A stretch of DNA of 64,000 nt, taken from assembly GCA_030390025.1 (NCBI GenBank), contig CM059431.1, forward strand, positions 107,262,001-107,326,000, read 5' to 3'. Every line of letters starts with the position of its first letter. Within the stretch, counting starts at the first letter, position 1. Under the pieces are notes generated by a model. It saw only the letters and a program-made list of their open reading frames with translations. It had not been told where the DNA came from and did not search any database. This stretch comes from Squalus acanthias (taxonomy: Eukaryota). This document shows, in pieces, positions 5,660 through 34,845 of this stretch. The position numbers and the translations under genes were made by a program.

Positions 5660-6290
5660 CAACTTTAAGTGCAAGCAGATAAGACCAGAGCAAGGAACTC
5701 CTGAGCTTGTAGTTAGAAGCATAGGATACAAAACCAAGGAGGTAACTCTTAAATTGTACAAGAACTTGGTTAGGTTGCAATTGGAGCATTGTGTAGATCT
5801 CTGTTCACTCCATTATAGGAATGATATAAAAGCAATGAAAAAGGTGGAATGTAGATTCATAAAGATGGTCCCAGGGATGACGAGTTACAGTTCTGAAGGG
5901 AGACTTAAGAAGTAAGGATTCTTTCATTAGAGCTGATATGTTTGAGGGTGAACTGATAGAAGTCTTCAAGATTAATGAAGGGCCATGATACGATTGGTTG
6001 GGGGACGGTAATGCAAGGACACAACTGTAAGATAATCACCAAAAAAGAAATACTGGGGCATTAAAAAAAAATCAATCTTTACACAATGGTAGTTAGAATG
6101 TGTAATTCTCTGCCATAAACAATTTTGGTCACAGAGTCCATACATACTTTTAAAAGTGAACTGGGCAGTTGCTTGAAAAAGAGGAATATTGAAGGATATG
6201 GGGAGTGAACAATTCGATAGCTCAAGGGGAGAAAAATAATGGCACAGAGTTGATGGGCCAATTGGCCACTTTCTGTGCTCTAACATTCTG
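5660..6290 (+). mobile_element. Old degenerate CR1 3' fragment
   Basis: ORF 5652..5915 (LKLYKNLVRLQLEHCV) and a decayed CR1 3' UTR (GATGGGCCAATTGGCC...TTCTGTGCT). Confidence 0.8.
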
Positions 6291-21605: not shown

Positions 21606-24399
21606 CTTTTCTTTCCTTCCTTACTTCCTCCTTCCCTCCCTCCCATGTAATGCTAATCCCAGAACCAAGGAGTTTGTATCAAGGGAAGTGTTCTATGTGG
21701 AGCCTGTGTAGAAAAGCAGACCACCAATTGCACCAGAGATGTTTTTGAACTGAATGACCTAAAAGCTTAATTTATTGAAATCCAATGTTACCGATCAATA
21801 GCAGACTGAATAGCAGCGACTCCAGATTTAACTGGGTACAAAATGCTCTTTTTAATCTAATGCCGCAAAATCATTACCAAATGTAGCAGTTATTCATTCA
21901 ATGAAATCCATTAAATGAAATTGATCGATAGCAGACCCTCCCTCCATTGAGTAGTAGACTTAATGAAGTGTGAAATGATCTGTTTAATCCAGTTAACTGC
22001 TTGCCACTGCAAAAGCTTTTGGTGAGCAAAACTGAAAAGCAGCAAAACTGTCATTTTGGGAACCCCATAAATAGCGTTGCATCAGAAATGACAACTGTGA
22101 AAGAGCATGCTGTGTTGAAGAACACTGCATTATGCTGACTAAGAACTCCCACTGAGCTAAATCCTTAAAATTAACAGTCAGCTTTTCTAATTACTCTGAA
22201 GCAGGTAGGGTGACTTTGTTTCATCCCTGTTCTAAAACCTTCAGCAGTTGTTCAGCTTTACATTTTCCATACGGAGGCACACGGCTCCTTCCTGTTTCTC
22301 ACAGTTGCCTGATTCCAGCTGTATTTATTCAAGTCGCCATCTGTTGAACATTGGGGATGCAGCTGCCAAAGTTGGCATCCTCAAGGCACAGCGATATGTT
22401 GCCAAGTGACCGATTTTTCTAGCCTTCAGTGGTGAGGCTGGATGTCTGGGTCATTGGTTTACCAAGGTTAAGAAGCTTAAAATGATTCCCGTTTATGAGG
22501 CCATTGCAAATGCGCTGTCAAAAGAATTAAGATTTGTCGACTGTCCAACAACCGAGATCCTTTTCTGCGTCTTATAATGTGGTTTTGTATATGTCACTGT
22601 GAATCAGTACCCTATCCACATTCTGCAAACAGCAAATCAGTGCAACAAAGAAGAAATGATCAAAGCACAACATTCAATTTTTGGTTCTGAAATACAGCGA
22701 ACATTAAAGTTTCTCAGGTCAGGCACAATAAGGCAACTTTCTGATCCTGAAAGATCAATGGTCCAGGGTTCAATCAGAGGAATCAGTCCCGGTTCTCAAA
22801 TGATTTGTTTTTTTCCAAAAAAATCTGTCCAGCTTATTGATGTGCTTTCCTTGGTACTTAGTATTTAGTGTCACACGAGCAAATGGATTTCCTGTTGCAG
22901 GAGCAATGAAGAATCCAGCATCTCAATAGTCTGATTCCCAAAGTTGCACATTTAGTATGAAGCAAAAGTAAGTAGCAGAGTCTGCAAAGTCCCGAGTTGC
23001 TATTTCCACAGCAGATATATTTATTTAATGACATTTTTTTTTTGGTGCTGATTTGCTTTACTTCATAGCATTGTAAATGTAAATATAGATTTATGTTTTT
23101 TTTTCCTTCATTTTTATTAATTGTCACTGAAAACTCATCAGAAAAAAAGTCACATTTTTGTAAGGAGCTATCAATATTCTGTTATGAATCTGGAGGAAAT
23201 TGAATTATACCCTTGTGTCAGTTGCTCTCCATTCCCATTAACAAAGCCACTGACAATTAAATACATAAAAAAATGTACCAATAACAGTAAGGCAATACAT
23301 TGGACATGCAATCCTAAATTACAGACCCTAATAACCCAAAACCTTACCAGGAACCTTCATCCCCCATCCTTGAGAAAATTGTGCAATGCCCAATTTCACC
23401 CAGGAGGAGATTAATCCTGAAGAAAGCTAATTTCCCGCTTACCCAAGATGGTTAACTAAGGAATGCAGCACAGAGGAGGAATTATAATGCGCTGAGAGAA
23501 TTGCTGCTAATCTTTCCTATGTGGCACAGCTAAGGGTTGAGCGATGCAAATGGATTTGTTGTGACAGAGTCTACGGGACACAGCAGTAGCCTAGCCCAGT
23601 AAACAACTTTCACTCTGAGCTCAATTGGTGACCAGTGTGTTGTCAGAACTTGTACCAATCATTCCAGAGCTTGTAGGTACGCCATGTGAGGAGATATCAG
23701 CTCTATGACGTGTTTGATGCCAACACACTACACTAACTATTGGAACTGATTTACCTTTGATTAGATTGAAGAGATTTAAAATATAGATTTACTAAACGCA
23801 TGACCCACAACAATAGATTGATAGGGTGAGATGAAGAGGGGTGGGAGGAGGCATGGACCAGTTGGGCAGAATGGCCTGTTTCTGTGCTGTAAATTCTATT
23901 TAATTCTATGATTAGTACTCCTATTGCCTCTTGGAATGACATAGAATTTTACAGCACAGAAACAGACCATTCGGCCGTACAGATCTATGCCGGTGTTTAT
24001 GCTCCTCACAAGCCAGCTCCCACCTTATTACATCTAACGCTATCAGCATATTTTTCTATTCCTTTCCCTCTCATCTACTTATTTAGCATCCCATTCATAA
24101 GAACATAAGAAATAGGAGCAGGAGTAGGCCATTCGGCCCCTCGAGCCTGCTCCGCCATTCAAGGAGATCTTGGCTGATCTGATCTTGGCCTCAACTCCAC
24201 TTTCCTGCCCGCTCCCCAGAACCCTTGATACCCCTGTTTTTCAAAAATCTGTCTATCTCCGCCTTGAATATATTCACTGACCCAGCCTCCACAGCTCTCT
24301 GGGGTAGAGAATTCCAAAGACTCATGACCCTCTGAGAGAAGAAATTCCTCCTCATCTCTGTTTTAAATGGGCGACCCCTTATCCTGAAACTATGCCCCC

Positions 24400-24627
24400 T
24401 GACGTAATAAAGACTCACTACGCACTTGGTTGAACATAAAGCAAGGCTTTAATCGACTTGTAACAAAACATGGGGGTCTAGTTAGCAGTCACTAGCTTCC
24501 TGTTTCCAGATTGTCTCTGCCCAAGGTGGGCCCACGCCCGAGTATTCATACTCTACGGACGGCGCCCCTGCTGGCCGCCCAGTAGTACTTCCTGAGTTAC
24601 TTCTTGTAGAAGTTGCGATTTATGACA
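24400..24627 (-). repeat. 3' LTR of the Gypsy element
   Basis: Direct repeat of 28651-28878; I count 9 substitutions in 228 bp by eye. Confidence 0.95.
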
Positions 24628-24673
24628 TTCTTCCTCCCTAAAAGGTTTGGAAGTCCAGTCTTCCTTTAACGGA

Positions 24674-27545
24674 CTAGGCGGACCAGAAATAGCCGTAGTC
24701 GTTTAGCTCTCTGCTTGTGACCGGAAGGCACGTCTCCCCGGACCGTGTCCTGGGTCGCTTGACCCGTACCGGTAAGTCGGTGGAGTCCGCGTCGTCTTGA
24801 TCGTCCTGTGGAGGACTGGGAATATCATGACTCTGGGTGCTGGTCCCCACAGGCGCAGAGCTGGCCTCATCCCGGGTCGTGGCTGGAGATTGTCCAGCGT
24901 CCTGGCTTTGGGTGGCCATCCTACGGGGAGCGTCCGGCTCCCTGAGTTGATCCAGTAGCGCTGCCAGCAGATCCCTCGATGTCCCAAGTGGGGCGTCATT
25001 TTTATGGGGGTGCGGAGTGTTGATATCATCGTCGTGGGATCCTTCATCATTCGGGCCCTTGTGACCGGTTGGGCAGGGAGCCAGATCTCCGAGCGAGACG
25101 GTGGCCTCCCGGCCATCAGGGTACCGTACGTGCGCATACGTGGGATTTACCTCCGTTAACTCCACCTCGTCAAAGAGAGGGTCATTTTTGGCAGACCGGA
25201 CGAACCTCCGGAGTAGCACAGGGCCTGGAGCCACCAACCATGACGGTAGAGATGTCCCATGTGTAGAGCGAAGCCGGAATTTGAAGAATCGCTCATGAGG
25301 CGTGACATTAGTAGATGTGGAGAGAAGAGACTTGATAGAGTGTAACACATCGGGGAGCACCGTTTCCCACTGCTGGTCCGGTAGGTTGCGTGACCTTAGT
25401 GCCAGACGGACAGCGTTCCAGATGATGGCATTGTATCGCTCAACCTGTCCGTTGCCGATCGGGTGATATGGTGTCGTCTTACTCGAGGCAATTCCCCGTT
25501 GGGAGAGTTAACCTTTAAGTTCACTCGACATAAAGGAGGGAACCCGATCCGTGTGGATAAAATTGGCCGTCCCGCAAAGGGAAAAGACCTGTTCGAGGCA
25601 TTTAATTACCGTAGAGGTAAGCACATTAGGACAGGGGAAGGCGAAGGGAAAGCGTGAATACTCGTCTACCATCGTAAGTAGGTAGGTGTTCCTTGTCGAC
25701 GAAGGCAATGGCCCTTTAAAGTCTATGCTGAGCCTCTGCATAGGCTGCATTGCATGTATGAGTAAGCCATCTGATGGGCGGAAGAATTGTGGTTTCAATT
25801 CTGCACAAATCCTACAGGAGGAGCATGTTTTCTTTACGTCCTCCGTTGAGAATGGTAGATTTTTGGAGCGCATGAAGTGCAACATACGGGTCACGCCAGG
25901 ATGGCATAAGTCCATATGCAAATCCGCCAGAGTCGACGTTGACATTGAGGAGCAAAATGCCCGTGTGAAGGTATCTGGGGCCACATTCTGTTTGCCAGGT
26001 CGGTAACGGATAGTATATCCAAAGGCAGCCAGCTCCATCCTCCAGAGTTGAAAATATTATTTTTGATTTTCGTGCGCCTCCGGTTATCCAACATGAAGGC
26101 CATGGAGCTCAGGTCAGTTATAAGTGTAAAATGACGCCGAGCAAGAAAATGACCCCATTGGCGGACAGCCTCGATGATGGCCGTAGCCTCCTTCTCGATG
26201 GAGGGGTAATGGAGCTCGCTACCCTGCAAGGTTCTGGATAGGAATGCTACGGGTCGGCCACCTTGATTCATCGCATTCGACCACAAAAGGAAGGTTTTCG
26301 TCAATGGAGCGAAGCGTGGCTTTCTCCAGCTGTCGTTTGAGGAGGTTGAAGGCAGAAATAGCCGTAGCTTCCAATGGAAAAGACTTCGCATGGAGCAGGG
26401 GCTGTATTTTATCGGAGAAGTGTGGTACCCATTTTGCGTAATAAGCAAACATGCCAAGTGCCCGACGAAGAGAGCCGAGGTTCGTAGGGGGAGAGAGCTC
26501 CTGAAGTGGACGAAGTCGCTCTGGGTCCGGTTTAACAACACCGTTGCCCACCCAGTAGCCAAGAATGTTCACCGATGGCACCGACTTGGATTCGTTTAAC
26601 GTTAAGTGACGACGACGGAGTACGTCAAAAAATCTCTGAAGATTGGCGTCATGCTCATTTTGATCATGGCCGGCAATAGTGATATTGTCTAAATACGGAA
26701 AGGTATCCGTCAAGTTCTCTTGCCGGACTAGGCCATCCATGGCCCGTTGGAAGACGGCCACCCCATTGGTGACCCCCGAATGGAAGGCGGCGAAACTGAA
26801 AAAGCCGACCATTGGCCTCAAAGGCCGTATACTTCTTGTCGGAGTCTTGCAGCGGCACCTGATGGTACGCGCTTTTCAAATCAAAGGTTGAAAATACCTT
26901 GTATTTGGCAAGGTTGTTGACCATGTTATCTATGCGTGGTAGCGGGTAGGCATCCAGATTAATAGTCTGCGAATAATCGATACACAGACGTTTTTTATGT
27001 TGTTTTAAGGGATTTTTCACAATGACGACTTGAGCCCGCCAGGGAGATGAACACGGCTCGATAATACTGTCGACTAAAAGGCGAGAGATTTCCGCCTCGA
27101 TAAACGCTCGATCGTCTTGGCTAAAGCACCGCGATTTGGTGGCTATGGGTTTACAGCGGGGGGGAAGATTGGCAAACAGGGAGGGTTTACCGAGTAAGGC
27201 CGCCGATAGCACACAAAACGGCACCTTAGAAATGGTAAGCTTCGGCCTTGACCCTCCAAACTCAAAAGTGATCTTCTTGTGCTGCTTCTGGAAGTCCTGT
27301 CCCAGAAGCACATCGCTGCATAAGTTGTCGAGTACTCCGAGCCGGGTGGAGAGATACGTGCGGCCATTGAGGATGAGGTTGACAAGACAGAAGCCAGAAG
27401 AATTGGTGGTCAGAGTCGTCAGAGCCATTGCAATCTCCCTGTCCGAGGGATAAATGCGCAGTTTTAACCTGCTGACAGCCCGCTTACTAATAAAGCTGTC
27501 AGAGCTGCAGGAGTCGATTAGCGCGCTTAGAGTGTGCCCATTTAC
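24674..27545 (-). pseudogene. pol: Gypsy pol (protease, RT, RNase H, integrase), several frameshifts
   Basis: ALIDSCSSDSF protease (~27500-27530); RT LCIDYS, YPLPRID, FDLKSAYHQV, YLDN; RNase H FVVECD, IEKEATAII; integrase HHCC (H..LCHPG...C..C), SIDFKGP, IHTD. Spread over ORFs 26664..27428, 26219..26821, 25891..26562, 25508..26038 and 24674..25360. Confidence 0.9.
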
Positions 27546-28550
27546 TCAAACCTTCGTGGCTGCATGGGACAAACTTTGGGGAAAAACAGCCGTGATGGGA
27601 GGAGGGGCAATTTTCCCTTCGGCAGCTGTAGCCTTAACAGTGGTTCTTGGGGGAGGAGCAGCTCCATAGATAGCAGCTGTGAAGCTAACAGGAGCTCTCG
27701 ACTGGTATACTTTAGAGGAGCGGCCTTTCTTGTTAGCAGAGGCCCGTGACTGGCATACCTTGGAAAAGTGTCCTTTCTTGCTGCACTGATTGCAGGTCAC
27801 ATTACGAGCCGGGCAAAATTTTCTGTAATGGCACGCCCCTCCACAAAAGAAACACTTTCTTCCTGATTGCCAGGATGCTGCTAGGGCGGGGTCATCATCA
27901 GCGAAGGCCTCTAGGGTAGGGTCGTCATCCGTTAGAGTAGAGTCAACATCAGTGGGGGCATCCGCCCGAGACCTACCGAAAGACTCATTAAAGGTGATAG
28001 CCGCCGCCCGTGCATGTGGTGGGAGATAAGTGTCTGCATTCTTCTTGGCCAAGTCCAAGGAACACGCCTGGTCATAAGCAGCCCGTAAATCGAGGGTTTT
28101 ATTTTCCAACAGGCGCTGACGTATAAAAGAGGACGCAATCCCATTGATAAAGGAATGGCGGATTAGTTCCTCTTGATACTGTTCAGCTGTAACCGCTTTA
28201 AGGTTACAATCCTTGCTGAGCCTGCAAAGTTTCTGGAGGAATTCATCGAGTGATTCCCCAGGCTGCTGCCGAGTTGTGGCCAGCAGGTGTCGAGCAAAGA
28301 TGTCATTCGGGGACTTGACATATAGCTGCTGTAAAATTTGGACAGCAGTGTCGTAGTCTATACAGTCCTCAATATAATCATACACATGAGGGGACACGTA
28401 GTTAATAAGCATTCGTAACTTATTAGGGGCATCCGCCCCACATTCTTCAAGAAAGTTGCTAAAGGTACGAAACCAATGCTTCCATACCTTCGCTGCCGCA
28501 GGTGCATTCGGGTCCAGGTCGAGACGAGCGGGTCTAAGGAGTTTCTCCAT
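27546..28550 (-). CDS. gag: Gypsy gag with two Cys/His zinc-knuckle motifs
   Basis: 334-aa ORF starting 100 nt after the 5' LTR; QQPGESLDEF motif; CFFCGGACH...C and CNQCSKKGHFSKVC. Confidence 0.85.
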   Translation of the reverse strand: MEKLLRPARLDLDPNAPAAAKVWKHWFRTFSNFLEECGADAPNKLRMLINYVSPHVYDYIEDCIDYDTAVQILQQLYVKSPNDIFARHLLATTRQQPGESLDEFLQKLCRLSKDCNLKAVTAEQYQEELIRHSFINGIASSFIRQRLLENKTLDLRAAYDQACSLDLAKKNADTYLPPHARAAAITFNESFGRSRADAPTDVDSTLTDDDPTLEAFADDDPALAASWQSGRKCFFCGGACHYRKFCPARNVTCNQCSKKGHFSKVCQSRASANKKGRSSKVYQSRAPVSFTAAIYGAAPPPRTTVKATAAEGKIAPPPITAVFPQSLSHAATKV

Positions 28551-28650
28551 GATGGATCAGTTTCTTGCCCTAGTTCCCTTCTGTGGTTCGAGTTGCAGCT
28601 GGTTGTTCCGAATCACCCAAAGTGTGGAGATGATGTCAAGTCGATTAAAT

Positions 28651-28878
28651 TGACGTAATAAAGACTCACTACGCACTTGGTTGAACATAAAGCGAGGCTT
28701 TAATCGACTTGCAACAAAACATGGTGGTCTAGTTAGCAGTCACTAGCTTCCTGTTTCCAGATTGTCTCTGCCCAAGGTGGGCCCACGCCCGAGTATTTAT
28801 ACTCCCCGGACAGTGCCCCAGCTGGCCGCCCAGTAGTACTTCCTGAGTTACTTCTTGTAGAAGTTGCGATTTATGACA
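28651..28878 (-). repeat. 5' LTR of the Gypsy element
   Basis: TG...CA termini. Minus-strand TATAAATA at 28794-28801 and ATTAAA at 28699-28704. Confidence 0.95.
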
Positions 28879-29624
28879 CCCCCTAGTTCTAGATTCCCCC
28901 ACGAGGGGAAACATCCTCCCTGCATCTACCCTGTCAAGCCCCCTCAGAATCTTATATGTTTCAATAAGATCACCTCTGATTCTTCTAAACTTCAATGAAT
29001 ATAGGCCCAACCTGCTCAACCTTTCCTCATAAAACAACCCCTTCAACTCAGGAATCAACCTAGTGAACCTTCTCTGAACTGCCTCCAATGCAAGTATATC
29101 CTTCCTTAAATAAGGAGACCAAAATTGGGGTCTCACCAGCGCCCTGTACAGTTGTAGCAAGACTTCCCTACTTTTATACTCCATCCCCCTTTGCAATAAA
29201 GGCCAATATTCCATTTGCCTCCCTAATTACTTGCTGTACCTTCATGCTAACTTTTTGTGTTTCATGTACGAGTACATTCAACTGCTTGGAGGCCTCTTCT
29301 ACCTGCTGCAGACCTGCTTCAGCCTGGAAGAAAGCATCATCACCTTCCCTGTTCCTGCCCAAGTTAAAATGCAATAGGGGGCCTATTGATGCAAAAGCAC
29401 CTCAATTTCCGTAAATTAACGAGGCCCCGCCTGTAGAACCTGCCTGCCAATCGGAAATGGCGGCAGAGGATTGAGTTTCCACTGGATAAGAAACTGCCCA
29501 CCAGCCTGGCAAGATTAAAATTGACCCCTTAATCTTCGGCTGACCACCAGTCTCGGGAAATGGCAATTTTCCTGGGTTGAATGTTTCAGGTTTTCAGCTG
29601 TCACAGTGTGATGCTGAAACAAAT

Positions 29625-30123: not shown

Positions 30124-31815
30124 AGCCAGGAGATGCGCTGAAATGCCGTTGACAGCTGTAACGACAGCTGATGCCGGTTCTAGTGCCGCATGCCATATCG
30201 GTGATGCCGGTAGCGCTGCCGGTAAACCCTAGCACCAGGGAGATCGCCATCATGGAGCTTGTGACATCAGTGAGTGTGCAATGTTCACTGGACACCTGAT
30301 CTCCAACATTGGATTCAGCCACTTAACTTAATGGCAGCGCAGAACGACAACAGGGAGAGCTGGCATCTAACAGCAGGAAGCAGGCTGCAGCAGCGTTATT
30401 TAAAGGCACCATTCCCAATCAGCTGTACCTGACAGCGTTTTGCAGTTTCAGTGTCTGTTTGCTACTTCCTGCAACTGAAACAGCTTTCTTTAGTTATTTC
30501 AAGCTTTTTTGGTGACAGGGAGTATTCATTCAAGTGCAGAAGTCACTCATTATTTGTTAAAGGCTTCTGCTCACAACACTTCCTGACAGTCATGGGGGCT
30601 GCGGGATGGCGGCATTAAACAGGAGGACGAGGAGGCAGAGGAGGACAAGGAGGAAGAGGATGAGGCAGAGTAGGATGAGGAGGAAGAGGACAAGGAGGAG
30701 GAGGATGAGAAGGAGGAGGACGAGGAGGAGATGGATGTGGAGGAAGAGGATGAGGAGGAGGAGGACGAGGGGGAAGAGGATGAGGTGGAGCAGGAGGAAC
30801 AGGAGGGAGGGCGGAGGCAGCGAGACAATAAGTCTTCTGGACGGGCTGTCTGTGACCGGCTCATCAGACTCCGATTCACATGAATGAAACCCCAGATTCC
30901 CGTAGCTCATCACATCCCCATCATACCATCCCTGTCTCACGCCATATCACAGTGTCCTCCAGGGTGCAAACATGAAATTAGAGAGACCACAAAATATTCC
31001 AAACACCATTAATAAATTTATCTATTAACATATCACATGAATTCTAATAACTAATAACACTTGTGCCTGCCATAGTTGAATAGCTGTCACTGTGGGCAAG
31101 GTGGGTGTGAGTGTTGCTCGGTAGAGATTGTTGGTGGGTGAGTGCTGGAGGTGTGGTACATTGAGCAGTGTGTGAAGCTTGTGGTGCAGATGGTGGTATG
31201 TAGCATTTGTTGACGCCTTCACTTACCCTGACCACCCGTATGAGCTCGTTAAACTTCCTCCTGCACGGGGTGTGGGACCTGGGGAGCACAGTGCTGCCCA
31301 TGATGTGATGTGCCACCTCCCTCCACATAGTCCGGCGGACTTGTGGCGAGGGCCTCCTGCCAGTCAGTACAGGACCGCCCGCCTTCTCACCACCGCTAAA
31401 ACCAATGCCTCCAAAGCTTCCTCGGAAAACCCCTGGGCTCTCTCCCTGGGGGCGACGATCTGCCATCAACATTTGTAAATAAGTGCTCCTTCTCGTTGTC
31501 CTTCTTCTTATGGTTGTTGAGGCAGCTGCACAGCCAACAATGCTGAGAATGAGGTGCTGCAGCATCAATGGACCTTCCCCTTAAGCAGTGAAAAAAGCCT
31601 GTGACAATCATTACTTGCATTTAGACTACACCCGATATTGGTCCAACTTTTCAGTGTAACGCCAATGAGGGTTTTTTAGATTAGATTTATGGCTGCAATC
31701 ATTTTAATGAGGAGTGAGGATGAATTTTGCATGCAGTCTAGACAATTTTCAACATTCTTTCACCATTTTTAGTCTAAACACTGCCCATTCCTTTGCTATA
31801 ACGAATTTCTAGCCC
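30124..31815. mobile_element. Internally deleted Harbinger derivative (transposase ends on +, Myb remnant on -)
   Basis: On +, ATGGGGGCTGCG (MGAA) runs directly into a GAG-rich acidic tract and GRAVCDRLIRLRFT*. ORF 31044..31568(-) has a Myb/SANT motif (RRPSPQVRRTMWREVA...CRRKFNELIRV). Right end GAATTTCTAGCCC; left end approximate. Confidence 0.75.
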
Positions 31816-32800: not shown

Positions 32801-34323
32801 AGTCATAGAGTCATATGGGCTGGATTTTGATTGACCCGTGGAGGCGGGTTTGGAGGCGTGTGGGGGGTTAAAATTGCGAAAACTGGCGGGCGGGCACAAG
32901 TCCGCCTCCATCCCGCCTCCACGCAATTTTCATTAAATTGTGTCTGCTGGTCCCGACTCTGTCCCGCCTCTAAGAGACGGGATAGGCTGTTAAGGCCCTT
33001 AACAAGCACTAAATTGGCTCTGTAATGCCATTTGAAAGGCCTTTGTGATTTTAACCCTTGTTCTACGTGAAGCACGCCTGGTCTGAAACACGATTGTGAA
33101 ACCTGGCGGGAGCACATTTGGCTGGATCGCTCTCTCTCTCTCTCAGTGGTGGTGTAAAAATATCTGGGAGCAGACTTAGGGCTGCTGCTGCTCATTTTGC
33201 ATCCAGGTCCTCTCACAGCAAAGGCCAGGCAGTCTCTGAAGACCTTCAATGCAGCAGCAATGATGACATCATCAGAGGCGACTTTCAGACTGAAAACACT
33301 AATTGGTTCATGGGTTCCCACATGCTGGAACTCAGTTGCCCAATTAGGTGAAAATTGCATCAATCTCCCACATCCAATTGCAGTCGGGTGGATAACACGA
33401 AAAGTGGATAATTCGACCCCAACCCGCCCCAGTATCAAAATCCAGCCCATAGAGTTATACAGCACAGAAAGAGGCCCTTCGGCCCATCGTGTCCACACCA
33501 GCCATCAAGCCCTGTCTATTCTAATCCCATTTTCCAGCACTTGGTCCGTAGCCTTGTATGCTATGGCATTTCAAGTGCTCATCTAAATGCTTCTTGAATG
33601 TTGTGAGGGTTCCTGCCTCTACCACCCTTTCAGGCAGTGAGTTCCAGATTCTCTGGGTGAAAAAGTTTTTAGTCAAATCCCCTCTAAACCTCCTGCCCCT
33701 TATCTTGAAACTATGCCCCCTGGTTATTGACCCCTCTACTAAGGGGAAAAGTTCCTTTCTATCTACCCTATCTATGCCCCTCATAATTTTGTACACCTCA
33801 ATCAGGTCCCCCCTCAGCCTTCTCTGCTCTAAGGAAAACAACTCCAGCCTGTCCAGTCTATCTTCATAGCTGAAGCGCTCCAGCCCAGGTAACATCTGGT
33901 GAATCTCCTCTGCACCCTCTCCAATGCAATCACATCCTTCCTATAGTGTGGCGACCAGAACTGCACACAGTATTCCAGCTGTGGCCTAACTAGCGTTTTG
34001 TACAGCTCCATCATAACCTCCCTGCTCTTATATTCTATGCCTCAGCTAATGAAGGCAAGTATCCCATATGTCTTTTTAACCACCTTATCTACCTGTCCTG
34101 CTGCCTTCAGGGATCTATGTACATGCACACCAAGGTCCCTCTGATCCTCTGTCCTTCCTAGGGTCCTACCATTCATTGTGTATTCCCTTGCCTTGTTAGT
34201 CCTCCCAAAATGCATCACCTCACACTTTTCAGGGTTAAATTCCATTTGCCACTGTTCTGCCCATCTAACCAACCCGTCTATATCGTTCTGTAGCCTAAGG
34301 CTTCCCTCCTCGCTATTTACCAC
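32801..34323 (-). mobile_element. CR1 3' fragment with a MITE inserted in its tail
   Basis: ORFs 33521..33895, 33829..34014 and 34042..34323 encode the CR1 ORF2 C-terminus. The (CATAGAGT)n tail is split at 32816/33449. Confidence 0.9.
32817..33448. mobile_element. Harbinger-type MITE, ~630 bp
   Basis: Perfect 15-bp TIR GGGCTGGATTTTGAT / ATCAAAATCCAGCCC; ATA-like flanks. Confidence 0.85.
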
Positions 34324-34367
34324 TTTGATTAAATGAAAAGTGAGGCAAGTACATCTTTATTAATTTA

Positions 34368-34845
34368 AGAGCATAAGAATTAGGAGCAGGAGTAAGTCAT
34401 ACGGCCCCTCAAGCCTGCTCCACCATTCAATAAGATCATGGCTGATCTTCGACCTCAACTCCACTTTCCCGCCCGATCCCCATAGCCCCTGATTCCCCAA
34501 CAGTCCAAAAATCCATCGATATCAGCTTTAAATATAATCAACGTCTCAGCACCCACAGCCCTCTGGGGCAGAGAATTCTAAAGATCCACAACCCTTTCAG
34601 TGAAGAAATTTCTCCTCATCTCAGTCCTAAATGGCCGACCCCTTATCCTGAGACTGTGACCCCTAGTTCTAGACTCCCCAGCCAAAGAAAAAAAGCCTCT
34701 CAGCATCTACCCTGTCAAGCCCTCTCAGAATCTTGTATGTTTCAATGAGATCACCTCTCATTCTTCTAAACTCCAGAGAGTATAGGCCCATTCTACTCAA
34801 TCTCTCCTCACAGGACAACCCTCTCATCCAGGAATCAATTTAGTG
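34368..34845 (-). mobile_element. CR1 3' fragment
   Basis: CR1 3' UTR and ORF2 C-terminal sequence similar to 24097-24399 and 28884-29070. Confidence 0.85.

Follow-up and report, generated by a model that had tools for sequence, protein, structure and literature searches.

A Ty3/gypsy retrotransposon of Squalus acanthias with a primer site that pairs with its own long terminal repeat: a conserved, covarying hairpin and the case for self-primed reverse transcription

How does a long terminal repeat (LTR) retrotransposon begin reverse transcription when the primer-binding site (PBS) beside its 5' LTR is not of the tRNA type? The question is raised by a Ty3/gypsy element of 4,479 bp that occupies positions 24400-28878, on the minus strand, of a 64,000-nucleotide stretch of Squalus acanthias DNA (assembly GCA_030390025.1, contig CM059431.1, positions 107,262,001 to 107,326,000), hereafter called the window. 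Self-priming has been demonstrated for the element Tf1 and is accepted for the Tf1/sushi chromoviruses, from fungi to vertebrates (PMC4600332, PMC10085805, PMC6317226). In the element described here the PBS pairs with the element's own LTR, the pairing occupies a fixed position and covaries among relatives, and a tRNA-type site is lacking; we lean towards the view that the element, and with it the whole lineage, starts reverse transcription by self-priming in the manner of Tf1.

An earlier note on this DNA had described a Ty3/gypsy element devoid of a tRNA-type PBS, with an exact 13-nt complement to its PBS position in both LTRs, 49 nt away, and with ATTAAA inside that segment as the only such hexamer of the LTR. 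All three observations were confirmed from the sequence. The 5' LTR (read from 28878 to 28651) ends in ...TTATTACGTCA and is followed by a spacer A (28650) and then by TTTAATCGACTTG (28649 to 28637), and inspection of this primer site found no TGG. TTTAATCGACTTG is perfectly complementary to CAAGTCGATTAAA, which is present in both LTRs, and 49 nt separate the two arms; ATTAAA is the sole AATAAA/ATTAAA hexamer within the LTR. Element position 1 is the first base of the 5' LTR, and a window coordinate equals 28879 minus the element position. The parts of the hairpin are the following.

28651-28878, minus strand: 5' LTR, 228 bp, a direct repeat of 24400-24627 with 96% identity
24400-24627, minus strand: 3' LTR, 228 bp, with 9 differences from the 5' LTR
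28699-28711, minus strand: proposed self-primer CAAGTCGATTAAA in the 5' LTR, element positions 168-180, its 3'-most 6 nt being ATTAAA
24448-24460, minus strand: second copy of CAAGTCGATTAAA, in the 3' LTR
28637-28649, minus strand: PBS TTTAATCGACTTG, element positions 230-242
28650, minus strand: lone A that spaces the PBS from the LTR end (CA); relatives have the same ...CA-A-TTTA... layout
28651-28698, minus strand: loop of the priming hairpin in the predicted fold, comprising the rest of R/U5 and starting with GCC

The pairing is real and far above chance. With up to one mismatch allowed, the 13-mer occurs three times in the 64-kb window, at exactly the three sites listed, compared with a mean of 0.07 occurrences in shuffled sequence; a count of three was reached in 0 of 100 shuffles.

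The same hairpin was found in distant relatives. Numerous protein homologues of approximately 1,200 residues are known (120 were listed), including proteins from shrimp, mussel, cnidarians, a tunicate, a copepod, a nematode and two cartilaginous fishes. Metagenome contigs were scanned with an alignment of 21 homologues, which yielded 80 loci; the 34 whose match starts within query residues 1-50 were examined (the other 46 start beyond residue 50), and since L075, L082 and L095 come without upstream sequence, 31 loci with a protein identity of 38-56% were testable. For 22 of these 31 loci, with identities of 38-53%, the best upstream inverted repeat lies at the PBS position, with arms of 9-17 nt (reaching 13-16 nt when single mismatches are allowed) and loops of 38-66 nt; its 3' arm is located 262-306 nt before the protein match, directly after ...CA-A, and no arm exceeded 7-11 nt once the upstream regions had been shuffled. 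The 5' arms are diverse across lineages (TTTAGCTAGTTAAA, TGAGTCGTTTAAA, TAAGCTGTTAAAA, CTTTTGTTTGTTAAA, TTTGGTGATTAAA and ATTGTGTGTAGTAA), each having its own matching partner. The relatives' elements measure approximately 3.8-4.5 kb, with LTRs of 115-280 bp.

Covariation was scored on 20 distinct hairpins with 13 pairs each, giving 260 cells. Paired cells made up 95.4% of the total versus 73.1 +/- 1.6% after shuffling, and cells changed on both sides numbered 51 versus 12.0; neither value was reached in any of 500 shuffles. Registers slid by 1-3 columns were only 22-47% paired, and in a register-anchored count 253 of the 260 cells were paired, compared with no more than 82.7% once the partner arms had been reassigned among the elements. 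RNAalifold, applied to the 20 hairpins, recovered the same 13-pair stem unaided, with double changes in 9 of the 13 pairs. Judged from this pattern, the pairing is evidently kept by selection. Conservation with compensatory changes, the check that the earlier note had proposed, was thus seen across distant relatives, and it was seen within the Squalus genome as well (see below).

Could a host RNA containing ...CAAGUCGAUUAAA nevertheless serve as primer, be it a whole tRNA, half or a fragment of one, or some other small RNA? LTR elements in general are primed by a host RNA. Yet the PBS begins with TGG in 0 of 24 hairpins, and the inner 10 positions vary by lineage while always matching the LTR of the same element, which a conserved host RNA cannot track. 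The 64-kb window, to which the tRNA scan was confined, contains no tRNA gene, and Rfam placed no family on the element, returning only two chance-level hits (E 0.42 and 0.94). We regard a host primer as very improbable. The lineage most likely self-primes, because the pairing is conserved with compensatory changes and TGG is absent, as self-priming predicts and a host-tRNA primer does not.

The Squalus genome itself provides a second view of the two arms at much shorter evolutionary distance. A search of its 3.7 Gb with an LTR-plus-leader query gave 1,431 first-look candidates, of which the 40 that were scored are 93-100% identical to the query. Among 29 other copies the PBS is nearly invariant, and 9 carry T rather than C at LTR position 173, giving a G.U pair. 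The 14 full-length copies each have their own 5-bp target-site duplication (TSD), with 5-28 differences over 228 positions between the two LTRs of a copy. A younger subfamily, with 94% amino acid identity to the query frame and many copies with an unbroken frame of 1,315 codons, carries the LTR segment CAAGTTGATTAAA and the PBS TTTAATCAACTTG in 12 of 12 copies; both sides have changed and the pair is kept. Its 3' LTR segment is identical to the 5' LTR segment in all 11 copies with a 3' LTR in range. Genome-wide counts for the pair in question, made with exact patterns oriented by the loop sequence and covering only copies in which both arms are otherwise exact, were as follows.

LTR 173 C, PBS 237 G, Watson-Crick pair: 24 sites
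LTR 173 T, PBS 237 A, Watson-Crick pair: 654 sites
LTR 173 T, PBS 237 G, G.U wobble: 10 sites
LTR 173 C, PBS 237 A, mismatch: 1 site

The younger subfamily is abundant, with at least 654 exact-hairpin copies, 1,758 LTR-pattern matches and pairwise differences of 0.2-1.4%, and the family, to judge from these sequences, has been recently active. More divergent families were sought in the same genome with two cartilaginous-fish homologues as queries, which gave only the younger subfamily of the same family. The pair CAAGTTGATTAAA / TTTAATCAACTTG also occurs, identical over 13 nt, in the metagenome loci L070, L072 and L090 (PBS at approximately 5737-5749), compared with L051; this metagenome family has only 47-51% protein identity, and the match may reflect a constraint on the arms or coincidence.

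The anatomy of the hairpin is conserved. The 5' arm always terminates in ...(A/T)TAAA or ...TAA, with GCC, ACC, GGC or GCT next to it, the PBS starts with TTTA or TTTTA, and 19 of 20 hairpins have G-C as pair 10. In the minimum-energy folds of 10 elements, the primer/PBS duplex closes the structure in all 10 (z scores of -2.3 to -4.8), and in each of them a small hairpin is predicted to begin directly after the last A of the primer, stacked on the duplex. Additional PBS-adjacent duplexes like those of the Tf1 'pretzel' appeared in none of these 10 folds, which consist of the central duplex and one stacked hairpin only.

A hairpin at this place could have another job, such as packaging, dimerisation, hiding of the 5' poly(A) hexamer or translational control before the gag ATG, with reverse transcription primed by something else. 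Many members carry ATTAAA or AATAAA inside the 5' arm, and in most relatives the gag ATG follows approximately 2-8 nt after the 3' arm (this family has an 86-nt leader between PBS and gag); several roles at once are conceivable. The arm is, however, not always a usable hexamer, examples being GTTAAA, TTTAAA and TAGTAA, and LTR elements require a primer site beside U5, which is exactly where the 3' arm lies (1 nt past the LTR in this family, directly after ...CA-A in relatives) and where no TGG-type site is present. We consider such a function in place of priming unlikely.

Under the self-priming model, a 13-15-nt stretch of the LTR in the genomic RNA (here CAAGUCGAUUAAA), which in relatives always ends in ...UAAA before GCC/ACC, would fold back over approximately 40-65 nt of R/U5 and pair with the site that lies one base beyond the 5' LTR. 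For the cut, the ends of the primer and the start of the RNA we infer, following Tf1, that the RNase H of the element would cut after the last paired A, at the junction with the stacked hairpin, and that the freed 3'-OH would prime minus-strand strong-stop DNA through the spacer A and U5/R. Plus-strand strong-stop DNA would then copy the RNA primer, so that the primer dictates the PBS sequence of progeny elements and both sides change together. The double change in the younger subfamily is what self-priming would predict for this reason, despite being a single event.

Where would the primer begin? In an alignment of 30 copies, only 2 of 319 columns show all four bases, namely positions 243 and 154, and the first of them directly adjoins the PBS.

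28636, minus strand: hypervariable base directly 3' of the PBS, element position 243
28792-28799, minus strand: TATAAATA box in U3, which reads TATGAATA in the 3' LTR

Position 243 reads A19 G4 C4 T2 in the 30 copies, and in the younger subfamily A77 G21 C2 among the first 100 of 623 matches; two copies with G among 12 younger copies are not each other's nearest relatives. This hypervariability would fit plus-strand strong-stop DNA that ends at the first base of the primer and receives an untemplated base from reverse transcriptase (RT). For Tf1, RT reportedly extends cDNA 3' ends with untemplated nucleotides and also copies the PBS primer (PMC11042837). A primer with a 5' tail would instead template T at 243 from position 167, and T was seen in 2 of 29 older-type sister copies (95-97% identical) and in 0 of the 100 younger ones. 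These data lend indirect support to a primer that starts at position 168, which would most simply be the start of the RNA; it most probably begins at, or 1-2 bases from, the 5' end of the transcript, and R/U5 would then comprise only approximately 61 nt.

The alternative is self-priming with a segment that lies inside the transcript, the RNA starting upstream, for example near position 155 or approximately 30 nt past the TATA box. Such a primer would need two cuts for its release, or would keep a 5' tail, or would be supplied in trans, either by the other packaged RNA or by the R copy at the 3' end. In favour of it, TATAAATA starts 88 nt upstream of the start of the segment and is kept in the younger subfamily. 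Its position in the relatives speaks against this reading: of 23 hairpins inspected over the 130 nt upstream of the segment, only 4 have TATAWA, at -62, -62, -90 and -113, and the TATA distance was rejected as a guide to the RNA start since the position of the box is not conserved. A segment internal to the transcript could also be signalled by hypervariable position 154 (window 28725 in the 5' LTR and 24474 in the 3' LTR, in the context GACC[N]CCATG), 14 nt upstream of the segment, which might mark another RNA or DNA end. It reads T17 G11 A1 C1 in the 30 copies and T96 G3 among the first 100 of 1,758 younger LTRs, and it differs between the two LTRs of an element in 4 of 14 older pairs and at least 2 younger ones (here A versus C). 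The T/G variation at 154 shows no CpG effect, and a link between positions 154 and 243 was judged unconvincing, the base being the same in 5 of the 10 copies, among 29 sister copies, with a non-A at 243. A further point in favour is the GT-rich motif CCATGTTTTGT upstream of the segment, common to L096 and L113, to which the answer is that it lies 13 nt before the segment here versus 23 nt in L113, so that there is no fixed tail length; the T expected at 243 from a 5' tail is also scarce, as given above. Taken together, an internal segment is possible but rather doubtful.

The GT-rich motif (window 28712-28724) is shared with L113:275-297 and L096, which belong to a 45-51%-identical metagenome family, and other relatives have similar (T)GTTTTGTG stretches; the motif could be an upstream polyadenylation element or part of the promoter.

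Two suggestions of the earlier note found less support. It had proposed that the geometry departs from that of Tf1, on the sole ground that TATAAATA lies approximately 85 nt upstream, and with TATAWA in so few hairpins this departure is not supported. It had also offered the 3' end of the RNA as one of two possible primers, which is unlikely, as a polyadenylated RNA would not terminate in ...UUAAA.

Several observations weigh against the Tf1-like model. In most relatives the segment begins with a pyrimidine, and an initiator motif cannot be made out, a combination atypical of RNA polymerase II starts; the pyrimidine would be less unusual for an internal segment. The TATA box of this family lies 88 nt upstream rather than approximately 30 nt. 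The hairpins were selected for having a stem, which inflates the percentage paired, though not the fixed position or the double changes. No stem was found in 9 of the 31 testable loci (L071, L078, L080, L098, L106, L123, L126, L136 and L139); L098 and L106 have decayed PBS-like sequence at the expected place and look like decayed copies, and L071 is cut by the contig end. The covariation within the genome represents a single evolutionary event, and both of its changes are CpG transitions. Among sequencing runs recorded as RNA, none was found to contain the element. Four runs (X1, X5, X9 and X10) consist of contigs, which are uninformative on RNA starts and ends and were used for variant letters only; they show no poly(A) loose end inside the LTR. 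The PBS variant A237 (28642 C>T) is dominant in all four (in X9, 46,842 of 56,837 depth), and the matching LTR variant T173 (28706 G>A) is dominant in X1 (103.5 of 120.4) and X10 (8.02 of 8.02), but accounts for only 482 of 190,827 in X9 and for 0 of 32.1 in X5. At face value the X9 and X5 figures mean a C.A mismatch in most copies of two related organisms; we give them low weight because short contigs break at these variable sites and the LTR depth includes solo LTRs, and the disagreement may be a short-contig artefact or a real mismatch.

The remaining anatomy is that of a Ty3/gypsy (Metaviridae) LTR retrotransposon, as established by the LTRs, the TSD, the polypurine tract and the domain order. 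The two LTRs have TG..CA ends (TGTCAT...ACGTCA), and the other features of the element are listed below.

28879-28883, no strand: TSD GGGGG, 5' side, in flanking sequence
24395-24399, no strand: TSD GGGGG, 3' side, in flanking sequence
24628-24639, minus strand: polypurine tract AGGGAGGAAGAA adjoining the 3' LTR
24674-28550, minus strand: gag-pol coding region with 2 CCHC knuckles, protease (PR), RT, RNase H and integrase (IN)

Relatives have a purine-rich tract (e.g. GGGGGGAGAA) at the position equivalent to AGGGAGGAAGAA. Their LTRs start with TGTCAT, TGTTGT, TGTCGT or TGATGT and end mostly with ATAACA, ACAACA or TCAACA, the end being ACGTCA in this family and CCTCA in L068-L072. The gag-pol region of the window copy is split into at least 6 frames, and this copy is therefore dead; sister copies have a single frame of approximately 1,315 codons. 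On the unbroken sister frame P0001 (1,226 residues) Pfam identified Asp_protease_2 (250-337), RVT_1 (428-587), RT_RNaseH (675-774), Integrase_H2C2 (802-851) and rve (866-961), in the order PR-RT-RNase H-IN, and the broken frames of the window copy encode these domains as well. A chromodomain (Pfam Chromo, PF00385) was found neither in P0001 (all Pfam families, E <= 0.1) nor among the precomputed Pfam assignments for the 120 listed protein homologues.

The element is inserted within another repeat, its flanks being 28879-29300 and 24189-24399 of the window, and the flanking repeat families (D2, D4 and D5) recur at 33746-34826 and 34366-34664. An open reading frame at 28729-29214 extends out of this flanking repeat into the LTR; it probably represents the end of a protein of the older repeat. 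A GA-rich tandem array of approximately 240 nt, with 9-15-nt units of the GAGGAGGA type, lies at window 30591-30830.

What would follow if self-priming holds for the lineage? Tentatively, and with more doubt than for priming itself, we propose that a large non-chromoviral Ty3/gypsy lineage, probably the Mag C-clade/SURL, replicates across animal phyla without a host tRNA by means of a conserved primer hairpin, the 3' end of which (...UUAAA-GCC) may double as poly(A) hexamer. Self-priming is described as the hallmark of one chromovirus sublineage, Tf1/sushi (PMC10085805); if the proposal is true, it would be no peculiarity of these chromoviruses and would be either ancestral to Ty3/gypsy or evolved repeatedly. 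The same logic in a compact, chromodomain-less lineage would bear on whether hairpin priming predates tRNA priming in LTR elements, and the idea that hairpin priming is the older state, with tRNA priming acquired later, is voiced in PMC3601003. Host defences aimed at tRNA primer sites would also miss this abundant animal lineage: silencing by 3'-tRNA fragments is reported to act through the PBS (PMC7472051), and elements without a tRNA PBS would escape it. In annotation pipelines built around a tRNA PBS such elements will count as PBS-less, and the layout ...UAAA-GCC-hairpin ... CA-A-TTTA... would offer a simple diagnostic alternative. The many unbroken frames of the younger subfamily would allow the RNA start and the primer to be mapped directly in tissue of this animal.

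Which lineage is it, then, and how does it compare with the known self-primers? The earlier note had asked this, and the answer is partial: with no chromodomain detected, the lineage does not look like the Tf1/sushi chromoviruses, while on prior description there is only the negative outcome of a literature search. That full-text search, with the original SURL and Jule reports and Butler et al. 2001 outside its reach, found no self-priming attributed to Mag, SURL, Jule or non-chromoviral animal Gypsy elements. The Mag lineage's C-clade, which includes SURL of sea urchins, is described as non-chromoviral and as widespread in marine invertebrates and vertebrates, and the fish element Jule is placed in the Mag family (PMC3601003, PMC6238403, PMC8220671). 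For the Mag C training set a mean LTR length of 174 nt and LTR ends TGTNATRT...AYANAACA are given (PMC3601003). The elements studied here fit this description in part, with short LTRs that start with TGT(C/T)(A/G)T or TGATGT and end mostly with (A/T)AACA or ACA, and with homologues across marine invertebrates and fishes. The single frame is presumably compatible with Mag and SURL, too. The placement in the Mag C-clade/SURL, which is based on this description, is offered as a lead only.

Self-priming has been predicted from sequence in plants, for the Tcn1 chromovirus clade and the TAR lineage of Ty1/copia (PMC6317226). These groups likewise lack a tRNA PBS throughout and have LTR-complementary sites (PMC6317226), but they are other clades from plant lineages, and PMC6317226 presents no covariation data for the present animal lineage. 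Animal Ty3/gypsy self-primers are represented by the vertebrate Tf1/sushi elements (sushi-ichi and relatives), according to papers citing Butler et al. 2001 (PMC6317226, PMC4600332, PMC10085805). The sushi group consists of chromoviruses, whereas the present lineage is more compact (approximately 3.8-4.5 kb) and has no chromodomain in the query or the 120 listed homologues.

The closest parallel in mechanism is offered by the fungal elements Tf1 and Tf2 of Schizosaccharomyces pombe and Tj1 of S. japonicus, which are likewise reported to have a PBS beside the 5' LTR that is complementary to their own LTR RNA (PMC10085805, PMC4600332). All three are chromoviruses with a chromodomain, of which none was detected in this lineage. 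The Tf1 primer is 11 nt long, compared with 13-15 nt here. It has been shown to be the 5' end of the RNA, whereas in the present lineage the start of the primer is deduced from sequence, and Tf1 forms a three-duplex 'pretzel' in place of the predicted central duplex with one stacked hairpin. This small hairpin resembles in its putative role the stem-loop beside the primer duplex of Tf1 (PMC10085805), and the likeness extends to an LTR that ends in CA, a duplex with an adjacent stem-loop, a single gag-pol frame and, if the model is right, a PBS copied from the primer (PMC10085805, PMC4600332, PMC11042837).

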